Assembly (NCBI RefSeq): GCF_021028975.2
Contig: NC_059436.1
Span: 29,760,001 to 29,824,000, forward strand
Length of the DNA: 64,000 nt
From: Sphaerodactylus townsendi
Taxonomy: Eukaryota
Direction of reading: 5' to 3'
The notes beneath the pieces were generated by a model, which saw only the letters and a program-made list of their open reading frames with translations, did no database searches and was not told the DNA's origin. The translations under genes were made by a program, and so were the position numbers. Shown piece by piece: positions 49,312-49,459 of this stretch (position 1 is the stretch's first letter; each line of letters starts with the position of its first letter).

Positions 49312-49459
49312 TCAGACACAGTCTTCTGCAGCATGGATGGGTGCAAGCTATGGCGTACCACCACCTCCACCACCCCCTCCACCCCCTCCCCAAGGACAGA
49401 ATGGAAGTGTTTTAACTAGTCAAACTGGATATCGGATGGCAGGTTTTGAAACGCAGTGA
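49312..49459 (+). CDS. TIA1: TIA1 exon 13 (terminal)
   Basis: atctag|(S)[15 protein letters not shown](P)11[22 protein letters not shown]; total 392 aa with exon 5. Confidence 0.95.

Follow-up and report, generated by a model that had tools for sequence, protein, structure and literature searches.

Long uninterrupted proline runs at the TIA1 fibril core of squamates and marsupials: a possible brake on amyloid conversion

The fibril core of the human TIA1 prion-like domain has been placed at residues 336–360 by cryo-EM (PMC12723238) and at residues 338–357 by solid-state NMR (PMC9881004). When this core is deleted, condensates still form but fibrils do not, and the substitutions G343P or Q348L slow fibril formation (PMC12723238). 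The ALS variant P362L makes fibrils form faster (PMC12723238, PMC9499527) and allows a β-hairpin with 370MLP372 (PMC9499527). An earlier note on the DNA described here took prolines of this domain to restrain fibrils. The effect of P362L agrees with that statement, however prolines are accommodated within the core at P352 and P356, and in one NMR study neither the structure nor the time course of aged droplets was changed by P362L (PMC9881004); for TIA1 the statement is established only in part.

In huntingtin exon 1, runs of 11 and 10 prolines lie behind polyQ and its amyloid core and have polyproline II (PPII) geometry, with 3.1 Å per residue (PMC8277859). The huntingtin proline-rich domain is bound by profilin, which lowers aggregation (PMC8277859; PMC8387879, a review). 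Clade-restricted homopeptides are also described in regulatory or prion-like RNA-binding proteins, including lineage-specific repeats of squamates and polyproline growth in CPEB2/3 (PMC4751654, PMC11965684). Unlike the run described below, 80.3 % of squamate Hox repeats are not clade-common (PMC4751654). For TIA1 itself, no significant change in repetitiveness across vertebrate clades was reported, with all sauropsids pooled (PMC11965684).

The window analysed is a stretch of 64,000 nt from Sphaerodactylus townsendi (contig NC_059436.1). The TIA1 coding span occupies 27545–49459 on the forward strand and comprises 13 exons encoding three RRMs and the prion-like domain. Coding exons from 31582 to 49456 were mapped by tblastn with Gekko and Pogona TIA1, and the start codon is at 27545. 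Identity to Gekko TIA1 is 81–100 % per single-exon block; exon 8 is 100 % identical to Gekko japonicus and 97 % to Pogona. Orthology is indicated by the three RRMs, the C-terminal Q/N-rich domain and the named TIA1 proteins as best matches. A C2orf42 homolog lies 3′ of TIA1 on the same strand, at 56348–63899 (tblastn with P0129, 69–95 % identity); it is context to the finding, and matches the synteny of human, where C2orf42 is also next to TIA1. The paralog TIAL1/TIAR is a separate locus of the host genome (G000:C8), closer to TIAR-named proteins than to TIA1, and its last two exons (L004:154–279 and 1110–1229) contain no proline run. The record P0018 (Crotalus adamanteus, 699 aa) continues from the TIA1 last exon into sequence resembling an open frame at 52942–53238 of the window, and is probably a fusion of TIA1 with the downstream gene made by gene prediction.

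The prion-like domain is encoded by two exons. The first half is in exon 12 (47836–47978, forward strand), as placed by exon map, spliced reads and alignment, and the second half is in the last coding exon (49312–49459, forward strand), as placed by translation and spliced reads. The latter follows an acceptor AG at 49310–49311, is open for 48 codons and ends in a TGA at 49457–49459; it is exon 13 when the alternative exon 5 (at 35638) is counted. Closely spaced AG acceptors are present at its start (49306–49326), and several mammalian records use another frame of this exon. In RNA reads of organism B, a relative, the in-frame joint is the sole exon 12/13 junction among those listed. Intron 12 contains high-copy repeat fragments at 48594–48694 and 49100–49170, where every run compared shows spikes of depth and loose ends.

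Within exon 13, positions 49358–49390 of the forward strand are exactly 11 consecutive proline codons (5 CCA, 3 CCT, 3 CCC and no CCG), as seen by translation, six-frame scan and alignment. The tract is preceded by YGV and followed by QGQNG, with 22 codons from tract to stop, and is the longest proline run of the window in all six frames, the runner-up being 6. In the alignment to PDB 9kty (human numbering from PMC12723238 and PMC9499527) it stands in place of human 361QPP363, a net gain of 8 residues, and its flanks match human TIA1 residue for residue. A contig of run X2, which carries the same organism label and is possibly the source of this DNA, crosses 49100–49620 with no differences and no gaps. 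Organism B reads splice exon 12 to exon 13 with GT..AG ends (56 reads in X21, 18 in X22), and at a depth of about 44–47 the differences listed for these two runs include no tract indel. Read support for the tract comes from X21 and X22 of four runs, the contigs of X4 and X10 not spanning it. Orthologous contigs of organism C cross exon 13 without a gap, and those of organisms D and E carry the tract without one, the gaps in the depth table sitting in intron or UTR bins. Run X8 contributes one identical and one diverged piece. The earlier note had described an in-frame tract of mixed codons in exon 13 at the human P362 position and had asked for read support; all of this is borne out. An assembly or homopolymer artefact is ruled out by the X2 contig, the organism B reads and 17 named squamate species.

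The same gene, exon and site are thus concerned as in human TIA1, but squamates have 11 prolines for QPP and alanine where human has P352 and P356. In addition, all squamates aligned lack one glutamine of the human NQQGF motif in exon 12 (window 47961–47978). This missing glutamine, where the fibril core begins, is a second squamate-wide core change. Like huntingtin exon 1, squamate TIA1 has an amyloid core followed immediately by an unbroken P11, taking the limits of the squamate core from homology. Unlike huntingtin, the TIA1 core is of mixed Q/N/aromatic composition, with no upstream polyQ and with one run rather than two. Since TIA1 is without polyQ, the likeness, which on the TIA1 side is one of sequence, is offered only as a claim about how the run may work.

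Homolog searches and cluster look-ups returned 304 proteins, of which 252 had the last exon in frame and were kept by a pattern test. The 52 set aside, one of them C2orf42 and the others isoforms that were short or out of frame, were sorted by script with no hand check of each protein. Counts refer to isoform records rather than independent lineages, and clusters were sampled among the members listed (up to 15 each). The longest proline run in the domain was 0–4 in 229 proteins, 9 in 1, 10 in 2 and 11 in 20; the 23 long runs belong to 20 squamate and 3 marsupial sequences. Among the squamate sequences with the exon, including the window, 11 prolines are present in 19 of 20, with 9 in Rhineura, and no run is interrupted by another residue (0/20). 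The 17 named squamate species are two geckos, a skink, three lacertids, an amphisbaenian, an agamid and nine snakes. The remaining 229 vertebrate sequences, a sample without tuatara and crocodilian last exons, contain no proline run longer than 4, and in the aligned TIA1 proteins both runs are absent from placentals, turtles, birds, frogs and coelacanth. Many amniotes have PPP at the tract site. The platypus record has the exon in another frame and of human-type length (24 residues), and the platypus is taken to be free of a run.

The squamate run is at least as old as the common ancestor of geckos and snakes, which lived about 190 million years ago. This date is a minimum because tuatara, anguimorph and crocodilian last exons lie outside the sample, as do those of dibamids; the crocodilian P0296 and python P0032 are short isoforms only. 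A recent species-specific expansion is ruled out by the 11 prolines found across the sampled squamates. The suggestion of a lineage-specific expansion therefore stands in so far as the tract is not common across amniotes, however the lineage is all sampled squamates rather than one species, and a second run is present in marsupials. Other homopolymers in or near the domain are Ala6 in the last exon of the frog Pyxicephalus adspersus (P0068), Pro4 at 362 in guinea pig (P0053/P0191) and Gln8 upstream in sturgeon (P0079).

The marsupial run, of 10–11 prolines, occurs in 3/3 sequences (P10/P10/P11) from koala, Tasmanian devil and tammar wallaby (records P0131, P0140 and P0141, P0131 being on record from 8 contigs). 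It is inserted between the counterparts of human T347 and Q348, 13 residues upstream of the squamate site, at a position corresponding to 49313–49321 of the window. Both runs are pure proline, of equal length and in the same exon; the marsupial run is inside the human fibril core (336–360), whereas the squamate run begins at 361, directly after its last residue, V360. Marsupials retain QPPQ at the squamate site, and in squamates nothing is inserted where marsupials have their run. Two separate origins are the simplest reading, as judged from the differing positions and from outgroups without runs. The Tasmanian devil has two records, with 10 and 11 prolines, which may reflect polymorphism or an assembly difference.

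Length varies to some extent, with 9 prolines in Rhineura and 10 and 11 in the Tasmanian devil records. Because repeat contigs derived from elsewhere stack on 49357–49391, only differences assignable to long orthologous contigs were counted, and minor variants of X21 were excluded. Among the differences listed, 16 of the 17 in exon 13 that can be assigned to organisms B–E are synonymous; 5 of the differences listed fall in the tract, at two third-codon positions, and all are synonymous. The 11 distinct synonymous events over 35.7 sites lead to an expectation of 6.8 replacements over the 22 sites of the tract if neutral, against 0 among the differences listed (P about 0.001); in organisms C and D one C>T outside the listed differences could fall in the tract. 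For organism E alone, which is fully enumerated, P is about 0.025. Across the prion-like domain of 10 squamates, 9 of 96 columns vary, and conservation of the tract does not exceed that of its flanks; 0/11 replacements in the tract is unexceptional because the whole domain is conserved. As judged from these alignments, the tract has become as constrained as the older sequence around it. The longest pure-codon run is 2 of the 11 codons, and the fraction of 0.18 is below the mean of 0.31 for anole proline repeats (PMC4751654), which suggests an old repeat. A young slippage microsatellite was rejected on this fraction and on the 11 prolines of 19/20 squamates.

Clade-fixed homopeptides are a known phenomenon. 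For two separate runs of 10–11 prolines at the two sides of one disease-linked amyloid core, no description was found in searches for TIA1 polyproline in squamates, lizards, marsupials and reptiles, or as convergence, in a literature from which subscription journals were mostly excluded. Podarcis muralis TIA1 is among the sequences in the alignment of Figure 3 of the review PMC8836218, where the squamate run is probably visible; 'proline' is absent from the accessible part of its text. TIA1 is not named in the portion of PMC4751654 covered, although its id-based lists may include it. The supplements of PMC4751654, PMC9499527 and PMC11965684 gave no TIA1 proline run, a weak negative as the files use ids or pictures, and the available text of PMC7169965 and PMC9676014 has no mention of proline. 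The TIA1 low-complexity domain has been treated as compositionally stable across vertebrates (PMC11965684), and loss of a single proline here has been linked to ALS. Two amniote lineages with a run at or inside a solved fibril core are natural experiments on the need of TIA1 for the amyloid state, the marsupial core being interrupted. With these runs it can be asked whether flanking polyproline generally counters amyloid in proteins other than huntingtin, and whether the known stress-granule brake of profilin can act through a core nucleator. If the runs are inert, they are one more clade-specific homopeptide.

The reading favoured here, held tentatively and at somewhat less than even confidence, is that the old, fixed run of 11 prolines behind the TIA1 amyloid core may be a selected PPII segment slowing liquid-to-amyloid conversion, possibly aided by profilin. 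Both runs would have arisen separately by codon slippage and then been retained by selection. The run would form a PPII rod of about 34 Å (11 × 3.1 Å), unable to join a β-sheet. In squamates such a rod could block extension of the core towards C-terminal sticker residues, and in marsupials it could split the core just before Q348, where the marsupial run falls. A run of profilin-binding size may in addition bind profilin and keep monomers soluble, as with the huntingtin proline-rich domain, with condensate formation largely retained. A PPII brake is favoured because of the position at the core, the effects of P362L and core mutants, the huntingtin likeness and the links to profilin, together with the fixation of the run in the squamates sampled, its synonymous differences, its age and the convergent run of marsupials. 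Blocking in cis alone does not account for 10–11 prolines, since one or two break a strand. A bolder version, which we regard as unlikely, is that squamates and marsupials carry a huntingtin-like handle of 10–11 prolines that would recruit profilin, stop fibril maturation and spare stress-granule condensation, which would yield two natural aggregation-resistant TIA1s, that of marsupials having a divided core. Several observations run against a brake: the core of birds and turtles is nearly the same, is also mostly without P352/P356, and has no tract behind it; the host paralog TIAL1 is tract-free; aged droplets were unchanged by P362L in one study, and the core tolerates prolines (PMC9881004); run length varies somewhat; the tract stands out in conservation no more than the rest of the domain; the huntingtin proline-rich domain can itself entangle fibrils (PMC8277859); and the exon seems, from the frog Ala6 and the guinea pig P4, generally to tolerate homopolymers. 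That the tract compensates for the lost core prolines P352 and P356 was considered and found weak, as birds and turtles mostly lack both and are tract-free.

The run could instead be a near-neutral frozen repeat, an unlikely but substantial rival, in which slippage in repeat-tolerant lineages was halted by synonymous changes and the sole constraint is that a non-proline residue is mildly harmful in a prion-like domain. Across 7682 orthologs, 1201 amino-acid repeats are found in anole only, and polyproline in HoxC4 and HoxC10 is clade-common (PMC4751654); the tract itself holds a 9 nt unit repeated 2.2 times, the region has other homopolymers (the frog Ala6, sturgeon Gln8 and guinea pig P4), and most amniotes manage without a run. 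However, synonymous sites change and yet none of the 20 squamate or 3 marsupial sequences has an interrupting residue, and two separate runs have reached the same length of 10–11. From the anole figures and 686 proline repeats of 4953, and assuming that 10–15 % are uninterrupted runs of nine or more and that rates are uniform, the chance that a given protein gains such a run a second time over about six deep lineages is roughly 1–2 %, an estimate too low for repeat-prone regions such as this one, with its frog Ala6 and guinea pig P4. The equal length at two positions would also suit a short linear motif over a position-specific structure. On that view the run would dock a proline-binding protein and leave aggregation unaffected; one candidate is a PRPF40-type WW-domain splicing factor at the U1 snRNP, which might strengthen the way TIA1 brings U1 to weak 5′ splice sites. 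This is improbable: both runs touch the amyloid core despite a domain of about 96 residues, and the flanks are neither acidic nor basic. PPxY, the class I WW-domain ligand, is absent at the tract, where the run is followed by QGQNG. The EVH1 ligand FP4 has a Phe/Leu-type residue before PPPP and usually acidic flanks (PMC8789275); at the tract valine precedes the run (threonine in marsupials) with no acidic residue nearby, and the EVH1 docking once proposed is not upheld.

Thermal tuning of stress granules for ectothermy had also been put forward. TIA1 droplets are temperature-dependent (PMC9499527) and squamates are ectotherms, but turtles, frogs and other amphibians, coelacanth and other fishes are without the run and endothermic marsupials have one, which makes the idea very unlikely. 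Least probable of all is a translational rheostat, in which 11 proline codons 22 codons before the stop would tie TIA1 output to hypusinated eIF5A. Polyproline translation is indeed promoted by eIF5A, yet three prolines already give eIF5A dependence, many amniotes have PPP here, and nothing in the present data links this mechanism to a length of 10–11.

A part for profilin in the favoured PPII brake is compatible with the sequence of the tract. Profilin ligands are of 5–10 prolines (PMC8387879, a review), and the 11 of the tract are within a range of five to ten or more. Knock-down of PFN1 gives faster stress-granule assembly, independently of actin depolymerisation (PMC12221373). The host genome (G000) encodes a profilin-1-like protein in which the terminal aromatic residues are kept. 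In its frame, W3, Y6, W31, H133 and Y139, which we take to form the profilin polyproline groove, are all retained by comparison with PDB 1cjf; the profilin review names only terminal aromatic residues (PMC8387879). Among the five matches listed in G000 there is no intron-bearing PFN1. The profilin-1-like frame (L006:1498–1914; G000:C7:103911723–103912136) is intronless, full length and intact, and is possibly a retrocopy serving as the PFN1 gene.
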